Shown one piece after another: positions 1,661-45,083 of a stretch of 64,000 bases of DNA. A program made the translations under genes and the position numbers. The notes beneath the pieces were generated by a model, which worked only from the letters and a program-made list of their open reading frames with translations, searched no databases and was not told the origin of the DNA. Source of the DNA: Eledone cirrhosa (Eukaryota); assembly GCA_964016885.1 (NCBI GenBank), contig OZ024742.1, forward strand, positions 128,030,001 to 128,094,000, given 5' to 3'. Every line of letters begins with the position of its first letter. The first letter of the stretch is position 1.

Positions 1661-1795
1661 ATCTTTTGATGTTGTAGACGCTCTTGTGTTCTTTATCATA
1701 TATACGGCTCTGCTCCAAAGCATAGAGCTAATTATTATGCTGCCAATACCTTAATGGGACACGGGTATACAATACCTAACTCCTATTAACCTAAG

Positions 1796-1854
<59 letters not shown>

Positions 1855-2069
1855 CACACACATATATATATATATACATACATACATATATATACACACA
1901 TATATATATATATATATACATATATACATACACATATATATATATATATATATACATATATACATACACATACATATATATACATACATATATACATACA
2001 CATACATATATATATATATACATACATATATATACACATACATATATATATATATACATACATATATAT

Positions 2070-2106
<37 letters not shown>

Positions 2107-2407
2107 TACATACACATACACATATATATATATATATATATACATACACATACACATATATATATATATATATACATATATATACATTCACATACTAATA
2201 TATATATATACATATATACATACATATACTAATATATATATATATATACATACACATACTAATATATATATATATATATAAACACATACATACACATATG
2301 TATATATACACACATACATACACATACTAATATATATATATATATACACACATACATACACATACTAATATATATATATATATATACACACATATATATA
2401 TATACTA

Positions 2408-2440
<33 letters not shown>

Positions 2441-2513
2441 TATATATATACACACATATATATATACACACATATATATATATATACACACATATATATA
2501 TATATATACACAC

Positions 2514-2544
<31 letters not shown>

Positions 2545-2549
2545 CACAC

Positions 2550-2580
<31 letters not shown>

Positions 2581-2673
2581 CACACATATATATATATATA
2601 CACACATATATATATATATACATATATATATATACACACATATATATATATACACACATATATATATATACAC

Positions 2674-2706
<33 letters not shown>

Positions 2707-2962
2707 CATATATATATATACATATATATATATATACATATATATATACATATATATATATATACATATATATATACATATATATATATGTAAACCCATG
2801 CAAGCGTGGAACACGGACGTTAAACGATATATATATACACATATATATATATATACATATATATACACATATATATATACACATATATATATATACACAT
2901 ATATATATACACATATATATATATATACACATATATATATATACACATATATACATATACAC

Positions 2963-3011
<49 letters not shown>

Positions 3012-3016
3012 CACAC

Positions 3017-3081
<65 letters not shown>

Positions 3082-3098
3082 CATATATACATATACAC

Positions 3099-3131
<33 letters not shown>

Positions 3132-3152
3132 CATATATACATATACACATAT
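1796..3152. repeat. (TA)n/(TACA)n compound microsatellite array
   Basis: Directly visible; interrupted by a 37-bp RTE 3' end at 2792-2828. Confidence 0.97.
2792..2828 (+). mobile_element. Extremely 5'-truncated RTE family-A 3' terminus
   Basis: AAACCCATGCAAGCGTGGAACACGGACGTTAAACG is identical to the 3' terminus at 10215-10249. Confidence 0.9.
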
Positions 3153-6100
3153 ATCATCATCATCATCATCAGGTTTAGCGTCCGTGTTCCACGCTTGCAT
3201 GGGTTTGGACGGGGGTTTTCCCACTTGAGGCAAGAGTGGTTGTCTTGCTCGCATAGGACTGTCTGGCGGGTTTTCTACAGTTGGATGCCCTTCCTAACAC
3301 CAACCACATTTACAGTGTGGGGCTGGGAGGTTTTTACCGTGTTGCCTACACGGCCACATTACAGCGTGGACTGTCTGGCGGGTTTTCTACAGCTGGATGC
3401 CCTTCCTAACACCAACCACATTTACAGTGTGGGGCTGGGAGGTTTTTACCGTGTTGCCTACACGGCCACATTTACAGCGTGGACTGTGTGTTTTTTGTCG
3501 TGACACCTACACGATCTCATTTGTTTCGGCCTGGATGTTGTGGGACCAACATAACTTTACATTGAAAGGGGCGGTGTGGGTGGGGTGGAGGTGGTGGGAC
3601 GGGGGTGTGTTTTGATAGAGGTGTCTACTGACTGTAGTAGGTTTTTACTTTGTATTTAGGTAAGGCGGGTCTTCTCTATTACTGAGTACCGCCAAAGGTC
3701 TCGGTCCAGTGACATTGTCTTGGAGAGGTGTAAGCGTGTGAGGTCGGAATTTATCAGCTCGTCCCATGTTTTTCTGGGTCTGCCTACTCCGTGGCTACCG
3801 TCTATCTTTATTGCCCTGCACTTTGTTATACAGCTGTCGTCTTTCATGCGCATCACGTGACCGTACCAACGTAGCCTTCTCTCGAGTAAACAACATCTGA
3901 TCCCTCTTATTTCTAATTTTTTCCTTAGTTCGTTTATGCTTTGCCGTTCACGTATATTACTATTGCACATCCAGCGGAGCATGCAAGCTTCGTTCCTCTC
4001 TAGTCTGCGTATATCCTCTGCACACAATGCCCAGGTCTCACCGCCATGCAGCATTGCTGTTCGTATGCAGGCATCGTATAACCTGCCTTTCATTTTTAGG
4101 GAGAACCCTCTAGCGGCTAATAGTGGTATAAGCTCTCTGAACTTTTTCCATCCAGTTCTGACTCTAGCTACTGTACTTTCAGAGCACCCTCCCCCACTGC
4201 TGATTTTGTCACCCAGATAACGGAAGCTGTCCACTATTTCTATAGAACCCTCTGCGCAGTTGAAGGAGCTAGTATTTTGTGGGCACTTGCTGCTACTTAT
4301 TGCACCAGAGCACCGGCCACATGTAAAATCTATGTTCTTAGTTAGCTTACCTGTGATCCCACTACATCTTTTATGCACCCATACTTTGCATTTGGGACAT
4401 AAAATGGAGTTTCTACCTACGCCTTTCCTACACACTGAGCATGGCCATTTCCCCGATGGGACCGCCGCCTTATTTTCTTTCCTACAAACTAGAACTTTAG
4501 TCTTAGCCAGGTTAATTTTAAGGCCTTTTGATTCTAGGCCGTGCTTCCACGTTTGGAATTTCTTCTCTAGTTCGGTCATTGATTCAGCTATGAGCGTTAG
4601 ATCATCTGCGTATAGGAGTTCCCATGGGCAGCCGGTCTTGAACTCCTCTGTTATAGCCTGAAGGGCAATAATAAATAGTAGGGGGCTAAGTACAGAGCCC
4701 TGATGGACACCAACTTTTACGCTAAACTCTTCACTATATTCGTTGTTAATTCTAACCTTACTGACTGTTTCTTTATACATGGCTTGTATAGCTCTCACAA
4801 GCCATTCGTCAACACCTAGTTTTCTAAGAGACCACCAGATAATGGAACGGGGGACTCTGTCGAAGGCTTTCTCCAAGTCGACAAAAGCTAAGTATAGGGG
4901 TTTACTTTTAGCTAGGTACTTCTCCTGTAGTTGTCGTACAATGAAAAGAGCGTCTGTGGTACTTTTGCCTGACACAAACCCGAACTGCATTTCATCTAGA
5001 TCAATTCTCTCTCTGATTAGTTGCGCTATTACTTTTTCCGTGACCTTCATGACCTGGTCGATTAATTTAATGCCTCTATAGTTACTCCTATCTAGGGCAT
5101 CTCCTTTTCCCTTATAGCAGTTAACGATGATGCTGCTACGCCATTCCTTCGGAACAACCCCATTCTGTACGACTTGGTTAACTATCCGGGTGACCATGGT
5201 GTGTCCCACCGAACCAGATGCCTTCAGCATCTCAGCAACTATTTCCGAAGGCCCAGCCGCCTTACCCGTCTTCATATCTTTGATTGCCTTACTTATTATA
5301 CTACCTTTAACTAACACTGCTGGTCCCTCTATTGGATCGATCTGGGGGAGACTGTCTTTCTCCCATTTGTTCTCCTCATTTAGAAGCCTTTCGTAGTGAC
5401 ACTTCCAAGCTACCTTCTTATCAGCGTCGGTGATGGCAAGTATGCCATCATCGTTAAGTACACACTTCTCCCCGACAATATCACGGTTTTCCTTGACACA
5501 TTGCCTGGCAATCCTGAACACCTCACGTTTTTGGTCCTCACGTTGTAGAACATGCTTGAACTTTCTTTCCTCTGCTTCCCTTCTTGCTAAGTACACTTGT
5601 CTCCTAGCTTCCCTCCTGGCCACTTGATAGTCTTCTCTACTTCCCCCATCCCGCCATACTTTCCAAGCCTGCTTTTTGGCCTTAATTGACTCCTCCACCT
5701 TACTGTTCCACCACCATGTTACTCTCCTCCTACCTACAGGCCTGCTCCAGCCACAGACTTCGTCTGCCGCCGTCAGCAGGTTTGCTCTCAGGAATTCCCA
5801 CTGTTCCTCTATATTATACGACTCTAATTGCTCTTCCTTACTGTCGAAAGCGTCAAGTAATTTGCTTTGAAATTTATTTCTGGCTATGGGGTCCTTTAGC
5901 TTCCATATTTTTCTCCTGAGGATAGTCCTCTTTCGCTGTCTAGTACGTCTCGTCCTGACTATGAGGTCGCTAATTATCAGTCTATGTTGGGAGGTGAATT
6001 CTTCATGGGGGTGGGATTTAGTGTTAACAACAGACACTCTGTCACGTCTTCTGGTAAGGATATAATCTACCTGGCTTGTGTGTTCCCCCGATCTATAGAT

Positions 6101-6458
6101 GATTTTTTGAAGTTAGTGTTACAGATAGTTAAGTTATTTGCGTCGCAGAATTCCAGGATTCTGGAGCCTTCCTCATTTCTAGTACCGAACCCATAGCCTC
6201 CATGGATTCCGTCATAGCCGTCACAATGTTGTCCAACGTGACCATTTAGGTCGCCTGCAATAACTATATAGTCACTGTCGGTTATTTGGGAGGTAGCGAG
6301 CATCAGTGTCTCGTAGAATCTGTCTTTTATAGCGCGGGGCTGTCCGGATTGGGGTGCGTACGCAGATATTACTGTCACCGTAGTTTTATTGAGGACAAGT
6401 CTTATTTTAATTATTCTGTCGTTCACTCTATTTACGTCTATTATCTTATCTGCCCACT

Positions 6459-6459
<1 letters not shown>
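3153..6459 (-). mobile_element. RTE-clade LINE family A, copy 1 (truncated within the AP endonuclease; (GAT)n tail)
   Basis: APE motifs SAYAPQ and AGDLNGHVG at 6067-6458; RT ORF; 3' UTR 3171-3655; (CAT)n at 3153-3171. Confidence 0.96.
3656..6037 (-). CDS. RTE reverse transcriptase ORF, uninterrupted 793 aa, with a PHD-like zinc finger
   Basis: [62 protein letters not shown]. Confidence 0.93.
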   Translation of the reverse strand: MSVVNTKSHPHEEFTSQHRLIISDLIVRTRRTRQRKRTILRRKIWKLKDPIARNKFQSKLLDAFDSKEEQLESYNIEEQWEFLRANLLTAADEVCGWSRPVGRRRVTWWWNSKVEESIKAKKQAWKVWRDGGSREDYQVARREARRQVYLARREAEERKFKHVLQREDQKREVFRIARQCVKENRDIVGEKCVLNDDGILAITDADKKVAWKCHYERLLNEENKWEKDSLPQIDPIEGPAVLVKGSIISKAIKDMKTGKAAGPSEIVAEMLKASGSVGHTMVTRIVNQVVQNGVVPKEWRSSIIVNCYKGKGDALDRSNYRGIKLIDQVMKVTEKVIAQLIRERIDLDEMQFGFVSGKSTTDALFIVRQLQEKYLAKSKPLYLAFVDLEKAFDRVPRSIIWWSLRKLGVDEWLVRAIQAMYKETVSKVRINNEYSEEFSVKVGVHQGSVLSPLLFIIALQAITEEFKTGCPWELLYADDLTLIAESMTELEKKFQTWKHGLESKGLKINLAKTKVLVCRKENKAAVPSGKWPCSVCRKGVGRNSILCPKCKVWVHKRCSGITGKLTKNIDFTCGRCSGAISSSKCPQNTSSFNCAEGSIEIVDSFRYLGDKISSGGGCSESTVARVRTGWKKFRELIPLLAARGFSLKMKGRLYDACIRTAMLHGGETWALCAEDIRRLERNEACMLRWMCNSNIRERQSINELRKKLEIRGIRCCLLERRLRWYGHVMRMKDDSCITKCRAIKIDGSHGVGRPRKTWDELINSDLTRLHLSKTMSLDRDLWRYSVIEKTRLT

Positions 6460-7681
<1,222 letters not shown>

Positions 7682-10274
7682 TCGACAGTAAGGAAGAACA
7701 TTTAGAGTCGGACAATATAGAGGGAGAGTGGGAATTTCTGAAAGCAAACCTGCTGTTGGCGACAGACGAAGTCTGTGGCTGGAGCAGGCCTGTAGGCAGG
7801 AGGAGAGTAACATGGTGGTAGAACAGTAAGGTGGAGGGGTCAATTAAGGCCAAAAAGCAGGCTTGGAAAGTATGGCGGGATGGGGGAAGTAGAGAAGACT
7901 ATCAAGTGGCCAGGAGGGAAGCTAGGAGACAAGTGTACTTAGCAAGAAGGGAAGCTGAGGAAAGAAAGTTCAAGCATGTTCTACAACGCGATGACCAAAA
8001 ACGTGAGGTGTTCAGGATTGCTAGGCAATACGTCAAGGAAAACAGTGATATTGTCGGGGAGAAGTGTGTACTAAACGATGATGGCACACTTGCCATCACT
8101 GACGCTGATAAGAAGGTAGCTTGGAAGTGTCACTATGAAAGGCTACTAAATGAGGAGAATAAATGGGAGAAAGACAGTCTCCCCCATATCGACCCAATAG
8201 AGGGACCAGCAATGTTAGTCGAGGGGAGTATAATAAGTAAGGCAATCAAAGATATGAAGACGGGTAAGGCGGCTGGGCCTTCGGAAATAGTTGCTGAGAT
8301 GCTGAAGGCATCTGGCACGGTGGGACACACCATGGTCACCCGCATAGTTAACCAAGTCGTACAGAATGGGGTTGTTCCGAAGGACTGGCATAGCAGCATC
8401 ATCGTTAACTGTTATAAGGGTAAAGGAGACACCCTAGATAGGAGTAACTATAGAGGCATTAAATTAATCGACCAGGTCATGAAGGTCACGGAAAAAGTAA
8501 TAGCACAACTAATCAGAGAGAGAATTGACCTAGATGAAATGCAGTTCGGGTTTGTGTCAGGCAAAAGTACCACAGACGCTCTTTTCATTGTACGACAACT
8601 ACAGGAGAAGTACCTAGCTAAAGGTGAACCCCTCTACTTAGCTTTTGTCGACTTGGAGAAAGCCTTCGACAGAGTCCCCCGCTCCATTATCTGGTGGGCT
8701 CTTAGAAAACTAGGCGTTGACGAATGGCTTGTGAGAGCTATACAAGCCATGTATAAAGAAACAGTCAGCAAGGTTAGAATTAACAACGAATATAGTGAAG
8801 AGTTTAGCGTAAAAGTTGGCGTCCATCAGGGCTCTGTTCTCAGCCCCCTACTATTTATTATTGCCCTTCAGGCTATAACAGAGGAGTTCAAGACCGGCTG
8901 CCCATGGGAACTCCTATACGCAGACGACCTGACACTCATAGCGGAATCAATGGCCGAGCTAGAGAAGAAATTCCAAACATGGAAGCACGGCCTAGAATCA
9001 AAAGGCCTTAAAATTAACCTGGCTAAGACTAAAGTTCTAGTTTGTAGGAAAGAAAATAAGGCGGCGGTCCCTTCTGGGAAATGGTCGTGCTTGGTGTGTA
9101 GGAAATGCGTAGGTAGAAACTCCATTTTATGTCCTAAATGCAAAGTATGGGTGCATAAAAGATGTAGTGGGATCACAGGTAAGCTAACTAAGAACATAGA
9201 TTTTACATGTGGCCGGTGCTCTGGTGCAATAAGTAGCAGCAAGTGCCCACAAATACTAGCTCTTTCAATTGCGCAGAGGGTTCTATAGAAATAGTGGACA
9301 GTTTCCGTTACCTGGGTGATAAAATCAGCAGTGGGGGAGGGTGCTCTGAAAGTACAGTAGCTAGAGTCAGAACTGGTTGGAAAAAGTTCAGAGAGCTTAT
9401 ACCACTATTAGCTGCTAAAGGGTTCTCCCTAAAAATGAAAGGCAGGTTGTACGATGCCTGCATACGAACAGCAATGTTGCATGGCAGTGAGACCTGGGCA
9501 TTGTGTGCAGAGGATATACGCAGACTAGAGAGAAACGAAGCTTGCATGCTCCGCTGGATGTGTAACAGTAATATACGTGAACGGCAAAGCATAAACGAAC
9601 TAAGGAAAAAATTAGAAATAAGAGGGATCAGATGTTGTTTACTCGAGAGAAGGCTATGTTGGTATGGACACGTGATGCGCATGAAAGTCGATAGCTGTAT
9701 AACAAAGTGCAGGGCAATAAAGATAGACGGTAGCCACGGAATAGGCAGACCTAGAAAAACCTGGGACGAGCTGATAAACTCCGACCTCACACACTTACAC
9801 CTCTCCAAGACAATGTCACTGGACCGAGACCTTTGGCGATACTCAGTAACAGAGAAGACCCGCCTTACCTAAATACATAGTAAAACCTACTACAGCCAGT
9901 AGGCATCTCTAACAAAATACCCCCCCCCCCCCATCCCACCACCCCCATCCCATCCACACCACCCCGTTCTATGTAAAGTTATGTTGGTGCCACACCATCC
10001 AGGCCGAAACAAATGAGATCGTGTAGGTGACACGACAAAAAAACACACAGTCCACGCTGTAATGTGGCCGTGTAGGCAACACGGTAAAAACCTCCCAGAC
10101 CCACACTGTAAATGTAGTTGGTGTTAGGAAGGGCATCCAACTGTAGAAAACCTGCCAGACAGTCCTATGCGAGCAAGACAATCACTCTTGCCTCAAGTGG
10201 GACTACCCCCGTCCAAACCCATGCAAGCGTGGAACACGGACGTTAAACGTTGATGATGATGATGATGATGATGA
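7682..10274 (+). mobile_element. RTE family A, copy 2 (5'-truncated; TAG at 7819-7821; 1-nt frameshift near 9252)
   Basis: ORFs 7831-9288 and 9243-9872 together match the copy-1 protein; 3' UTR and (TGA)n tail 10251-10274. Confidence 0.96.
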
Positions 10275-10275
10275 C

Positions 10276-10306
<31 letters not shown>

Positions 10307-10367
10307 CATATATATACATATATATATATACACACATATATATATATACACACATATATATATATAT

Positions 10368-10424
<57 letters not shown>

Positions 10425-10880
10425 TCCACACATATATATACACACATACACTATGTTGAAAAGCTAACACACCAGAGAGAGAGATATACAGTGTGCTATC
10501 AATAATACATGGAAAAAACCCACCAGTGTATGGAATCTATAAGCTATGAAAGGCAGAATATAGACACGATAATTAAAAATATAAATTAAAGCGTAAATAA
10601 ATACCTCTATAACTATATAACACACGTACAAATTCAAAGATACTAATCCAAAGATATGTTTCACTAGTAATTTGTTGAAAGAAATGCTTTAGCCTCGGTT
10701 CATCAGCATGTGTAAGGCTATACATTTCAGACAACACTAAGATAATTTTAAAAGTGGCTGTCCAGATACACGTGGGAGAGAGAAGTCACAGCGTGTTTCA
10801 GGGCAGTGAACCAGTGGCTTCTGAGGGATGAACTGCTAGGCCAAAGCCACCCAGAGAAGTGTGTATATATATATATATAT

Positions 10881-11466
10881 ATCATCATCATCATCATCAT
10901 CATCAACGTTTAACGTCCGTGTTCCACGCTTGCATGGGTTTGGACGGGGGTAGTCCCACTTGAGGCAAGAGTGATTGTCTTGCTCGCATAGGACTGTCTG
11001 GCAGGTTTTCTACAGTTGGATGCCCTTCCTAACACCAACCACATTTACAGTGTGGGTCTGGGAGGTTTTTACCGTGTTGCCTACACGGCCACATTACAGC
11101 GTGGACTGTGTTTTTTTGTCGTGACACCTACCCGATCTCATTTGTTTCGGCCTCGATGGCGCAGCACCAACATAACTTTACATAGAACGGGGTGGTGTGG
11201 ATAGGGTGGGGGTGGTGGTGGTGGGACGGGGTGTATTTTGTTAGAGATGCCTACTGGCTGGAGTAGGTTTTACTATATATTTAGGTAAGGCGGGTCTTCT
11301 CTGTTACTGAGTACCGCCAAAGGTCTCGGTCCAGTGACATTGTCTTGGAGAGGTGTAAGTGTGTGATGTCGGAGTTTATCAGCTCGTCCCAGGTTTTTCT
11401 AGGTCTGCCTATACCGTGACTACCGTCTATCTTTATTGCCCTGCACTTTGTTATACAGCTATCGAC

Positions 11467-11472
<6 letters not shown>
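10881..11472 (-). mobile_element. RTE family A, copy 3 (3' fragment)
   Basis: [10 protein letters not shown]...[12 protein letters not shown], (CAT)n tail. Confidence 0.95.
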
Positions 11473-11546
<74 letters not shown>

Positions 11547-11547
11547 G

Positions 11548-11607
<60 letters not shown>

Positions 11608-11633
11608 GTATATATATATATGTATATATATAT

Positions 11634-13935
11634 AACAGTAGGGTGGAGGGGTCAATTAAGGCCAAAAAGCAGGCTTGGAAAGTATGGCGGGATGGGGGAA
11701 GTAGAGTAGACTATCAAGTGGCTAGGAGGGAAGCTAGGAGAGAAGTGTACTTAGCAAGAAGGGAAGCTGAGGAAAGAAAGTTCAAGCATGTTCTACAACG
11801 CGATGACCAAAAACATGAGGTGTTCAGGATTGCTAGGCAATGCGTCAAGGAAAACCGTGATATTGTCGGGGAGAAGTGTGTACTTAACGATGATGGCATA
11901 CTTGCCATCACCGACACTGATAAGAAGGTAGCTTGGAAGTGTCACTATGAAAGGCTACTAAATGAGGAGAACAAATGGGAGAAAGACAGTCTCCCCCATA
12001 TCGACCCAATAGAGGGACCAGCAGTGTTAGTCGAGGGGAGTATAATAAGTAAGGCAATCAAGGATATGAAGACGGGTAAGGCGGCTGGGCCTTCGGAAAT
12101 AGTTGCTGAGATGCTGAAGGCATCTGGCACGGTGGGACACACCATGGTCACCCGCATAGTTAACCAAGTCGTACAGAATGGGGTTGTTCCGAAGGACTGG
12201 CATAGCAGCATCATCATTAACTGTTATAAGGGTAAAGGAGACGCCCTAGATAGGAGTAACTATAGAGGCATTAAATTAATCGACCAGGTCATGAAGGTCA
12301 CGGAAAAAGTAATAGCGCAACTAATCAGAGAGAGAATTGACCTAGATGAAATGCAGTTCGGGTTTGTGTCGGGCAAAAGCACCACAGACGCTCTTTTCAT
12401 AGTACGACAACTACAGGAGAAGTACCTAGCTAAAGGTAAACCCCTCTACTTAGCTTTTGTCGACCTGGAGAAAGCCTTCGACAGAGTCCCCTGCTCCATT
12501 ATCTGGTGGGCTCTTAGAAAACTAGGCATTGACGAATGGCTTGTGAGGGCTATACAAGCCATGTATAAAGAAACAGTCAGCAAGGTTAGAATTAACAACG
12601 AATATAGTGAAGAGTTTAGCGTAAAAGTTGGCGTCCATCAGGGCTCTGTTCTCAGCCCCCTACTATTTATTATTGCCCTTCAGGCTATAACAGAGGAGTT
12701 CAAGACAGGCTGCCCATGGAAACTCCTATACGCAGACGACCTGACACTCATAGCGGAATCAATGGCCGAGCTAGAGAAGAAATTCCAAACATGGAAGCAC
12801 GGCCTAGAGTCAAAAGGACTTAAAATTAACCTGGCTAAGACCAAAGTTCTAGTTTGTAGGAAAGAAAACAAGGCGGCGGTCCCTTCTGGGAAATGGTCGT
12901 GCTCGGTGTGTAGGAAAGGCGTAGGTAGAAACTCCATTTTATGTCCTAAATGCAAAGTATGGGTGCATAAAAGATGTAGTGGGATCACAGGTAAGCTAAC
13001 TAAGAACATAGATTTTACATGTGGCCGGTGTTCTGGTGCAATAAGTAGCAGCAAGTGCCCACAAAATACTAGCTCTTTCAATTGCGCAGAGGGTTCTATA
13101 GAAATAGTGGACAGCTTCCGTTACCTGGGCGATAAAATCAGCAGTGGGGGAGGGTGCTCTGAAAGTACTGTAGCTAGAGTCAGAACTGGTTGGAAAAAGT
13201 TCAGAGAGCTTATACCACTATTAGCTGCTAAAGGGTTCTCCCTAAAAATGAAAGGCAGGTTGTACGATGCCTGCATACGAACATCAATGTTGCATGGTAG
13301 TGAGACCTGGGCATTGTGTGCAGAGGATATACGCAGACTAGAGAGGAACGAAGCTTGCATGCTCCGCTGGATGTGTAACAGTAATATACGTGAACGGCAA
13401 AGCATAAACGAACTAAGGAAAAAATTAGAGATAAGAGGGATCAGATGTTGTTTACTCGAGAGAAGGCTGCGTTGGTATGGACACGTGATGCGCATGAAAG
13501 TCGATAGCTGTATAACAAAGTGCAGGGCAATGAAGATAGACGGTAGCCACGGAATAGGCAGACCTAGAAAAACCTGGGATGAGCTGATAAACTCCGACCT
13601 CACACACTTACACCTCTCCAAGACAATGTCACTGGACCGAGACCTTTGGCGGTACTCAGTAACAGAGAAGACCCGCCTTGCCAGTAGGCATCTCTAACAA
13701 AATACACCCCGTCCCGCCACCACCCCCACCCCATCCACACCACCCCGTTCTATGTAAAGTTATGTTGGTGCCGCGCCATCCAGGCCGAAACAAATGAGAT
13801 CGTGTAGGTGTCACGACCAAAAAACACACAGTCCACGCTGTAATGTGGCCGTGTAGGCAACACGGTAAAAACCTCCCAGACCCACACTGTAAATGTAGTT
13901 GGTGTTAGGAAGGGCATCCAACTGTAGAAAACCTG
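11634..13935 (+). mobile_element. RTE family A, copy 4 (open RT ORF 11634-13697; tail deleted)
   Basis: Uninterrupted RT ORF; short deletion across the normal stop; UTR ends at its junction with copy 5. Confidence 0.96.

Positions 13936-33548: not shown

Positions 33549-33550
<2 letters not shown>

Positions 33551-33636
<86 letters not shown>
33551..33636. repeat. (TC)19(GA)24 palindromic microsatellite
   Basis: Directly visible; centre CTCGAG. Confidence 0.95.
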
Positions 33637-33639
<3 letters not shown>

Positions 33640-35193: not shown

Positions 35194-35256
35194 CTATATT
35201 AATGAAAAAATCAGAAGTAATAATATTTGAAATAGTTACACGTGAAGTTAGTTTAA

Positions 35257-35477
35257 CCCTTTAGCATTCACATGACTCTATATATACTATTATATTTTCA
35301 CAGTAAAGGCTTTACCCCATATAATATCTCACATAATATTGAATCTATGAGATTTTAATGTTATTTATTTTGAGAACAATACCTTAACATCAGTATGTGC
35401 GGCCAGTCATGGCCAGTTTGAACAGAAAGAGGTGAGAGAATTCTGGCCGGATACGGCTGGGTTTAAATGCTAAAGGG
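35257..35477. mobile_element. piggyBac-type MITE
   Basis: TTAA-CCCTTTAGCATT...AATGCTAAAGGG-TTAA. Confidence 0.85.
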
Positions 35478-35501
35478 TTAACATTAAAATATGATCAATA
35501 A

Positions 35502-35553
35502 ATCGAATATTATTATTAATATTCAATATAACCCATACATATATATGTATGTG

Positions 35554-35584
<31 letters not shown>

Positions 35585-36053
35585 ATATAAATGTGTGTGT
35601 GTATATATATGTGTGTACATATGCATACTTACATTTATGTGTCAGCTGTGCTAGGGCAAGAAATAAAAATTCTAATTTTACTTTTCGGCAAGGCCAGCGA
35701 TAACTCACTTGGTATGCAAATGAGGCTACTCAGCTGATATGTACTTTAAAAAATACTATATATTTTCAACCGTTCAACAAAGTGGCAGAAGTATAGTCCT
35801 AATAAAGGGTAATGACCCAGAAACATGTTGATTGTTCCTCAATGCCAGTGTTGAACAAACAGATGATGATTTGTCATCGGCACGGCACAGCTTTAATTAA
35901 GCCGCTTGTTTACAAACGATCGAATATTATTATTAATATTGGATATAACCCATACATACGTACATATGTATGTGTACATATGTGTGTAGATATATATATA
36001 TATATATGTGTGTGTGTGTATATATGTTTGTACATATACATACTTACTTTTAT
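35502..36053 (+). mobile_element. Retrozyme-like non-coding element, copy 2 (~1.3 units, 417-bp period, mutated HHR core)
   Basis: 35502-35638 is repeated at 35919-36053; HHR fold at 35794-35834: TAGTC-CTaATaA-a-GGGT/aatg/ACCC-a-GAAA-CATG-T-T-GATTG. Confidence 0.75.
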
Positions 36054-44017: not shown

Positions 44018-44274
44018 TGAAGGTGAAATTTATTTTTCCTATGATTTTTTAAATGTGTTTTGAATGAATATGGTCTTCAAAACCATAAACAATTACTCAT
44101 TTTCTGTGGTTCCCCCACCCAAGAACTCCTGGTTCCCATCAGGATGCCCTCAGACTGCAAAGTGGTAGTTTGGGAGGGAGAGTTAACTAAAAAACGGATA
44201 AATATTTTATGGTTTTGAAGGTTAGATTCATTCAAAACAAAAAAATCAATCGGAAAAACTTAAATTTCACCTCC
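44018..44274. mobile_element. MITE-like element with ~90-bp imperfect inverted arms
   Basis: AGGTGAAATTTA...TTTTGAATGAAT...CTTCAAAACCATAAA versus TTTATGGTTTTGAAG...ATTCATTCAAAA...TAAATTTCACCT. Confidence 0.7.
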
Positions 44275-44335
44275 ACAGGGTGTAATAATAAAAATTTACC
44301 AAGAATGAGTGTATAATACTAAGATTAATAATTAC

Positions 44336-44479
44336 CCGAGTTACTTCAATTTGAAACACGACGGAAGAATTAGGCGGTATTTTATCACCCATGCCTACTT
44401 CACCATATGCAAGGCTGGATGGAACGACTAAAACGCGTTGACCGCTCTTCTTCATACCAACTACACCCGAATCCCAGCC
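44336..44479 (-). CDS. FKBP15: FKBP15-like exon (C-terminal half of the FKBP domain)
   Basis: GWDSGVVGMKKSGQRVLVVPSSLAYG...IPPNSSVVFQIEV. Confidence 0.95.
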
Positions 44480-45083
44480 CTGCAAGTAAAACATAAAAAA
44501 AAAATAAATAAATAAAACAAGAACAAAGATTAGCATGAACGTTAAACAAGAGGAGGAATGATAGATTTCTCTTTGAAGCAAAATCAAATAGTTTATTCTA
44601 TTTTGTAACCTTTTTGTAGAGTTTATAGCCTGACCAGACGCTGGTAAGAGCATATCTGTATCACTGTCTGCTTATATTTATGTTGAGAGAGAGAAAGAAG
44701 ATGGGATGGTCACAGTTGGAATACCTTTTATTATAGGTCTACTTAATTAGACATTACATGGGATTAAACAACTTTTGGAATAGTGGCACAAGTAAAAATA
44801 GGAAAAAATGGCACAACTAATAAAAATTGTTTATTAAAGATAAATATGAATTGAAAATCATATATCGACATTGTTCAGACATAAACAAATATGTACTATT
44901 CATTACAAATTATGCAAAACAATAGTTTTCGATAATTTTCAGCTGATATATATTTTTAATACGCTACTTATAATTTAGCTGTCACCCTCCCACCCTCAAG
45001 TTTTCATTTGAGCTATTTTTATCATGCACTGAGCTAAATGTTACATCGTCATCATCATATGACAGGATATATATATACATATA

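Follow-up and report, generated by a model that had tools for sequence, protein, structure and literature searches.

The segment at 35502 to 36053 of the window, by which we mean the whole 64-kb stretch of DNA analysed, begins with a sequence that recurs towards its end, and a second locus of the same kind touches a giant TA/TG array. This arrangement raises the question of what kind of template gave rise to such inserts and whether one of them founded the array. The window consists of repeat-rich animal DNA with LINE frames carrying RT and PHD domains and with very long TA arrays. It further contains an exon of an FKBP-type peptidyl-prolyl isomerase gene (44267-44671, minus strand), a decayed LINE with RT and zf-RVT matches (28997-31089), which we take to be L1/Tx1-like, and a perfect inverted microsatellite pair, (TC)19 followed directly by (GA)24 (33549-33638).

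A unit of 417 to 420 nt present in two copies

A sequence-only reading of this DNA had reported that 137 bp of the segment, here called copy 2, recur 417 bp later, that the second locus, copy 1, repeats ATACTTATAT at a distance of 420 bp with a redundancy of only about 10 nt, and that the unit includes a TA/TG microsatellite. All of these observations were borne out. Copy 2 (35502..36053, plus strand; its 3′ end may reach ~36059) comprises 1.33 units of a hammerhead-bearing repeat. By alignment, its redundant segment at 35502..35638, a 5′-truncated partial unit, returned at 35919..36053, the second occurrence bearing the 3′ end of the insert; the offset was 417 and 115 of 141 alignment columns were identical (E 1e-34). 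The two parts of the 137-bp repeat lying outside the TA/TG tract were nearly identical, namely the 5′ part (35/37) and the final 21 bases (19/21), so that the match is not one of low complexity. Since the halves of the repeat differ, it is not a simple assembly duplicate either. The similarity between them ends at 35502. One complete unit of 417 nt with 34% GC occupies 35502..35918 (plus strand), and its frames gave no Pfam family above the cut-off.

Copy 1 (24244..24686, minus strand) makes up about 1.03-1.05 units with a period of 420 nt and 36% GC. It is 70% identical to copy 2 (226 of 324 aligned columns in the core). ATACTTATAT was found at 24673 and 24253, a spacing of 420, and the redundancy amounts to 10 nt and is weak beyond. 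In both copies the unit is closed, as the same junction, leading from the tract and ATACTTA to the start of the unique part, is crossed.

A third copy was not detected in the 64-kb window by a two-sequence profile search. Nor was unit-like sequence above the level of shuffles found in the flanks of both copies, beyond the MITE or beyond the far end of the array (6 tests, the best of which was equalled by 15 of 300 shuffles). None of 49 frames near the copies reached the Pfam cut-off. Motif scans disclosed 0 further copies in metagenome contigs and 0 in viral contigs; a single match in a second metagenome scan turned out to be a chance hit within bacterial-looking DNA. Copy 2 is set in AT-rich unique DNA. 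A MITE-like element of ~220 bp (35253-35481), present once in the window, ends 20 bp before it; this element has 12-bp terminal inverted repeats starting with CCC, is flanked by TTAA on both sides and is presumably piggyBac-like. About 90 bp upstream of copy 1 lies a hairpin-forming inverted repeat of 37 bp (24775-24811). What is said below about ends and structure is drawn from these two copies (n=2) at the level of DNA.

The hammerhead motif

A type I hammerhead pattern matched twice in the 64-kb window, once in each copy and in register, compared with 0.07 matches per 64 kb in simulated windows (n=30) with a relaxed pattern and 0 with a strict one. The motif of copy 1 (24452..24494, minus strand) has an intact CUGACGA core together with GAAA and a GUA site. 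Its helix II measures 4 bp and starts from a U-U, and its helix III is a palindrome of 2 bp; cutting is predicted after 24458. In copy 2 (35793..35835, plus strand, cleavage position after 35829) the helices are kept, but the core reads CUAAUAA instead of CUGANGA, that is, with two G-to-A changes. G5 and G8 of the hammerhead core are needed for cutting. With this core cutting is not expected, and the hammerhead of copy 2 is predicted to be inactive.

The motif is enclosed by an extended stem that continues helix I (35772..35856, plus strand, in copy 2). Taking hammerhead and stem together, all 25 pairs are maintained in the two copies, five of them through changes on both sides, a count based on two sequences and on a structure read from those same sequences. 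Eleven of 500 shuffles equalled this result, and slid controls paired at 20-41%. Folded as circles, the whole units gave z values of -3.95 and -5.98, reached by 0/60 shuffles each. When the TA/TG tract was omitted, z was -3.44 for copy 1 and -0.87 for copy 2 (12/60 shuffles). A search of the window against Rfam yielded no match at the gathering score, and relaxing the threshold to E 10 still brought up no hammerhead; the matches up to E 10 were exclusively of a microsatellite-driven microRNA type. Because each of the two loci contains a single hammerhead, neither would be able to release a monomer itself.

Ends of the inserts and nature of the template

The cleavage positions (after 35829 and after 24458) fall in the middle of the insert in both copies. 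The 3′ end of copy 2 lies 7 nt past ATACTTA and that of copy 1 lies 3 nt past it, both just beyond the TA/TG tract; measured from the predicted cut, these ends are 224 nt and 214 nt downstream, respectively. They agree within about 4 nt (at most 10), whereas the 5′ ends are 120-130 nt apart. Thus, the earlier statement that the two insertions have different start points applies to their 5′ ends, while the 3′ ends nearly coincide. Six of the 7 nt following ATACTTA in copy 2 match the start of the next unit. A target-site duplication was detected neither for copy 2 nor at the immediate ends of copy 1.

As both inserts span the cleavage site, a cleaved linear monomer is excluded as the template. 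Inserts that in addition exceed one unit call for either a circle or a multimer left uncleaved, so that both loci support a template of more than unit length. The sequence-only reading had proposed a circular RNA intermediate of ~420 nt. A hammerhead unit of this length and the longer-than-unit template are upheld; the circle itself is plausible, but DNA does not distinguish it from an uncleaved tandem RNA. We would assign about 45 in 100 to a hammerhead-made circle and about 55 in 100 to an uncleaved tandem transcript.

The TA/TG tract and the giant array

In copy 2 an alternating purine-pyrimidine (TA/TG) tract is followed directly by ATACTTA (~35534..35626, plus strand). The internal tract of copy 1 (24256..24339, minus strand) forms a 25-bp hairpin whose 3′ foot lies ~10 nt from the 3′ end of the insert. 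Hairpins as good as this one arose in 3 of 200 shuffles and in 6 of 300 doublet shuffles, which is borderline; the hairpin of the first tract of copy 2 was nothing special (41 of 300 doublet shuffles). This first tract contains 22 TG and 3 CA. The tract of copy 1, with 9 TG and 6 CA, has 12 G and 12 C and hence no strand bias.

That copy 1 runs straight into a giant array was confirmed. The TA/TG array complex (1799..24245, minus strand), which is split by LINE and other insertions, begins exactly at the 3′ end of copy 1, beyond its intact internal tract, and has no counterpart on the 5′ side. Ten of 11 array pieces have the same polarity, while the LINE pieces among them lie in both orientations. 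The polarity match between array and element, which had been claimed as well, holds for the first tract of copy 2 and barely for the tract of copy 1, the copy that touches the array. At the far end of the complex (1792..1798, minus strand) we found ATACTTA, the same 7-mer that occurs at the two ends of copy 1.

Six ORF-bearing LINE pieces, one LINE 3′ end and a MITE were identified within the complex. The LINE pieces (at least seven) are young, sharing 88-96% protein identity with the longest, and each of them has TA on both flanks; a homolog search with the LINE protein brought up no close named relative, the best reaching 52%. With at least seven LINE pieces inside it, the array acts as a target, and the complex behaves as one old array and as a strong TA-targeting hotspot. 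Two LINE pieces at 11281-13682 diverge from a short TA tract with a polarity opposite to all others, which suggests a local inversion. A further element of the array (16447-16805) has 99-bp terminal inverted repeats that are 99% identical.

Origin of the two copies

In our interpretation the two copies were inserted long ago and belong to a retroelement of the animal retrozyme or Penelope pseudo-LTR type, which is non-coding and non-autonomous; we give this reading, with the internal-start mechanism proposed for it, a probability of roughly two in three. The unit of 417-420 nt, the hammerhead fold, the redundancy and the common 3′ end are its observed part. Both copies (2 of 2) combine an invariant 3′ end and a partial tandem with 5′ truncation of variable extent, which constitutes a Penelope-type insertion pattern. 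According to the mechanism, a tandem master locus elsewhere would be transcribed and a Penelope-like protein would nick AT-rich DNA. Reverse transcription would then start within the RNA, always at the same position, which lies immediately 3′ of the TA/TG hairpin and ~215-225 nt beyond the hammerhead cut, with the TA/TG tract presumably serving as the start signal. Copying would proceed through an uncut or re-ligated hammerhead site over slightly more than one unit, and a variable stop point would yield the 1.03 and 1.33 units. As to an autonomous partner, the GIY-YIG family was matched by 0 of 57 frames, comprising 8 long frames (of 97 listed) and 49 around the copies.

Copy 1 most likely adjoins the giant array because such elements target TA-rich DNA, the array being a hotspot that other elements entered too. 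Unlike the LINE pieces within the array, however, copy 1 borders on TA at a single end, which is not readily explained by insertion into a pre-existing array. We therefore considered the possibility that copy 1 was inserted with a short TA/TG tail at its 3′ junction or acquired one immediately afterwards, perhaps because the reverse transcriptase slipped on the internal tract, and that this tail expanded to many kilobases and was later invaded by LINEs. The occurrences of ATACTTA at 24673 and 1798 would then represent a target-site duplication, and Penelope insertions with duplications of 8-10 bp have been described (PMC3846280). We regard this course of events as doubtful. In its favour, the array starts at the 3′ end of copy 1 and extends on this side only, its TG lies on the strand of the element as in the first tract of copy 2, and the 7-mer recurs at the far end, 22 kb off, against a background of 0.5% per array end. 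Among 42 array ends (one end was left out beforehand), ATACTTA was present at two, namely the far end and the tract of copy 2 itself. The 7-mer was noticed post hoc, however, and since several non-LINE array ends were eligible, the chance of such a match is a few percent; it may possibly mark a target-site duplication or be due to chance. The polarity agreement has a one-in-two chance. Moreover, the internal tract of copy 1 is intact, hairpin-shaped and unbiased, the marker words ACGTAC, TACGTA and TGTACA are absent from the TA array pieces (one ACGTAC resides within a LINE), no array accompanies copy 2, and such elements have been reported to target TA tracts (PMC8557442). The proposal of the sequence-only reading that the unit seeds TA arrays thus gains a little from the 7-mer bracket and the one-sided TA, and loses by an array lying outside an intact tract and by the arrayless copy 2. 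Should the two 7-mers really be a target duplication, the origin of a very large TA array would lie in a single ribozyme-element insertion.

Both copies might instead descend from a linear element of ~420 nt with fixed ends at ATACTTA, copied from neither a circle nor a multimer. Copy 2 would then be a full copy preceded by a separate 5′-truncated one, a Penelope partial tandem formed via re-initiation, and the ATACTTA at the 5′ end of copy 1 would be target sequence. The combination of a truncated and a full copy is indeed the usual Penelope partial tandem as described in PMC8557442 and PMC3846280, and the short redundancy of copy 1, which spans 10 nt and is weak beyond, would agree with it. 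We nevertheless judge a linear element unlikely, as the 3′ end of copy 2 extends past the motif into the next unit, which indicates a read-through template, and as an RNA with such ends would hold the hammerhead in its middle.

Quite unlikely is a history that combines a circle with seeding, in which the TA/TG hairpin of the circle would act both as the fixed start signal of a Penelope-like reverse transcriptase and as the template for a slipped TA/TG tail, each insertion thereby being able to found a microsatellite array. Copy 1 would on these terms have founded the 22-kb complex, bracketed by a 7-bp duplication, which later became a landing site for LINEs.

An origin at the DNA level, in which no RNA step took place and the copies are what trimming left of a satellite-like tandem array, or stem from a local duplication, is considered very unlikely. 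The lack of a clear target-site duplication would suit it, and unequal crossover has been proposed for the growth of retrozyme arrays (Li, Clavereau and Pollet 2026, bioRxiv 10.64898/2026.07.22.740005). On the other hand, the flanks of both copies showed no trace of further units, deletion would not have cut back two separate loci to one 3′ point, and the copies are dispersed, inverted and 30% apart.

The strict model of the sequence-only reading, by which a circular RNA is reverse-transcribed in a rolling manner from random starts and yields permuted inserts, is highly improbable. Both inserts are longer than one unit and cross the cleavage site, and circles are known for coral, mussel and axolotl retrozymes, with tandem cDNA from a primed circle having been proposed (PMC7229834). 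But mapping the ends of the two copies revealed a shared 3′ point and variable 5′ ends instead of permutation, and random starts on a 420-nt unit would bring two 3′ ends this close in 2-5 of 100 cases.

A TRIM or a plant LTR retrozyme was rejected, as the repeat starts with ATCG and ends with TTAT, inspection revealed neither a primer-binding nor a polypurine tract, the window has no tRNA gene, and the hammerhead, being of type I, is not part of the repeated segment either. TRIMs are characterized by TG...CA terminal repeats, a primer-binding site and a polypurine tract. Plant LTR retrozymes, according to PMC7229834, carry a type III hammerhead in the LTR.

Comparison with known systems

The units share several traits with animal non-LTR retrozymes as described in PMC7229834, whose non-coding units of 150-450 bp (350-390 bp in mussel) have a GC content below 50%, a type I hammerhead with a short palindromic helix III and strong self-pairing, which was computed here. 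The U-U at the base of helix II is present as in the axolotl hammerhead HHR_Amex2 (PMC7229834). Animal retrozymes occur as dimers or multimers, in contrast to the 1.03 and 1.33 units found here with one hammerhead each, and their target-site duplications, when present, are longer than 4 bp (PMC7229834). The internal TA/TG tract is another difference, the word microsatellite occurring 0 times in the main text of that paper. Retrozymes are recognized by a tandem of at least two hammerhead units; neither locus has such a tandem, and both were therefore classed as monomer copies resembling retrozymes and not as active retrozymes. Among published titles, with subscription journals mostly outside the search and repeat databases excluded, we found none on a link between retrozymes and microsatellites or on a cephalopod hammerhead family.

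The birth of microsatellites from retroelements with internal or 3′ repeats is an established route (PMC3812793). The cases treated there concern L1, Alu and B2 tails and short tracts; a multi-kilobase TA array founded by a ribozyme element would exceed these by far.

With Penelope-like elements the two copies have in common a 3′ end that is fixed at a point downstream of the hammerhead, beside a stem-loop (PMC11167929, PMC8557442), as well as variable 5′ truncation, a partial tandem and perhaps an AT-rich or (TA)n neighbourhood (PMC8557442). Partial tandems, 5′ truncation and a bias towards (TA)n are reported for the group that includes Neptune, Naiad and the non-autonomous Chlamys, and (TA)n is described as the target of Naiad and Neptune elements (PMC8557442). 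The purified Poseidon protein of Anolis, which represents the sole in vitro Penelope system, nicks AT-rich DNA, initiates reverse transcription at an internal position of the RNA, within a stem-loop lying downstream of the hammerhead, and has unprocessed RNA as its main substrate (PMC11167929). Autonomous Penelope-like elements have an RT/GIY-YIG frame and a period of several kb, neither of which is seen here, where the period is 420 nt; the 30-40 nt tail of Penelope-like elements is not definable from two copies. In Octopus vulgaris, Penelope-like families were recently active, in a report whose main text is without the word retrozyme (PMC13282606). This would bear on the two copies provided that the host is octopus-like, as the look of its repeats may suggest.

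Retrozymes have been derived from Penelope pseudo-LTRs by Li, Clavereau and Pollet (2026, bioRxiv 10.64898/2026.07.22.740005). Their 'active' class has two consecutive hammerhead units as opposed to one per locus here, in a sample that is mostly vertebrate. The retrozyme monomers of the same study, dispersed near-monomer hammerhead copies that are common offspring of tandem loci, resemble both copies. We conclude that the feature is real and most likely of a known element kind, adding one further animal family to a described class. The common 3′ end near the hairpin suggests that the internal initiation seen in vitro for one Penelope-like protein extends to retrozyme-type units; in that case, their ends should cluster and not be permuted.
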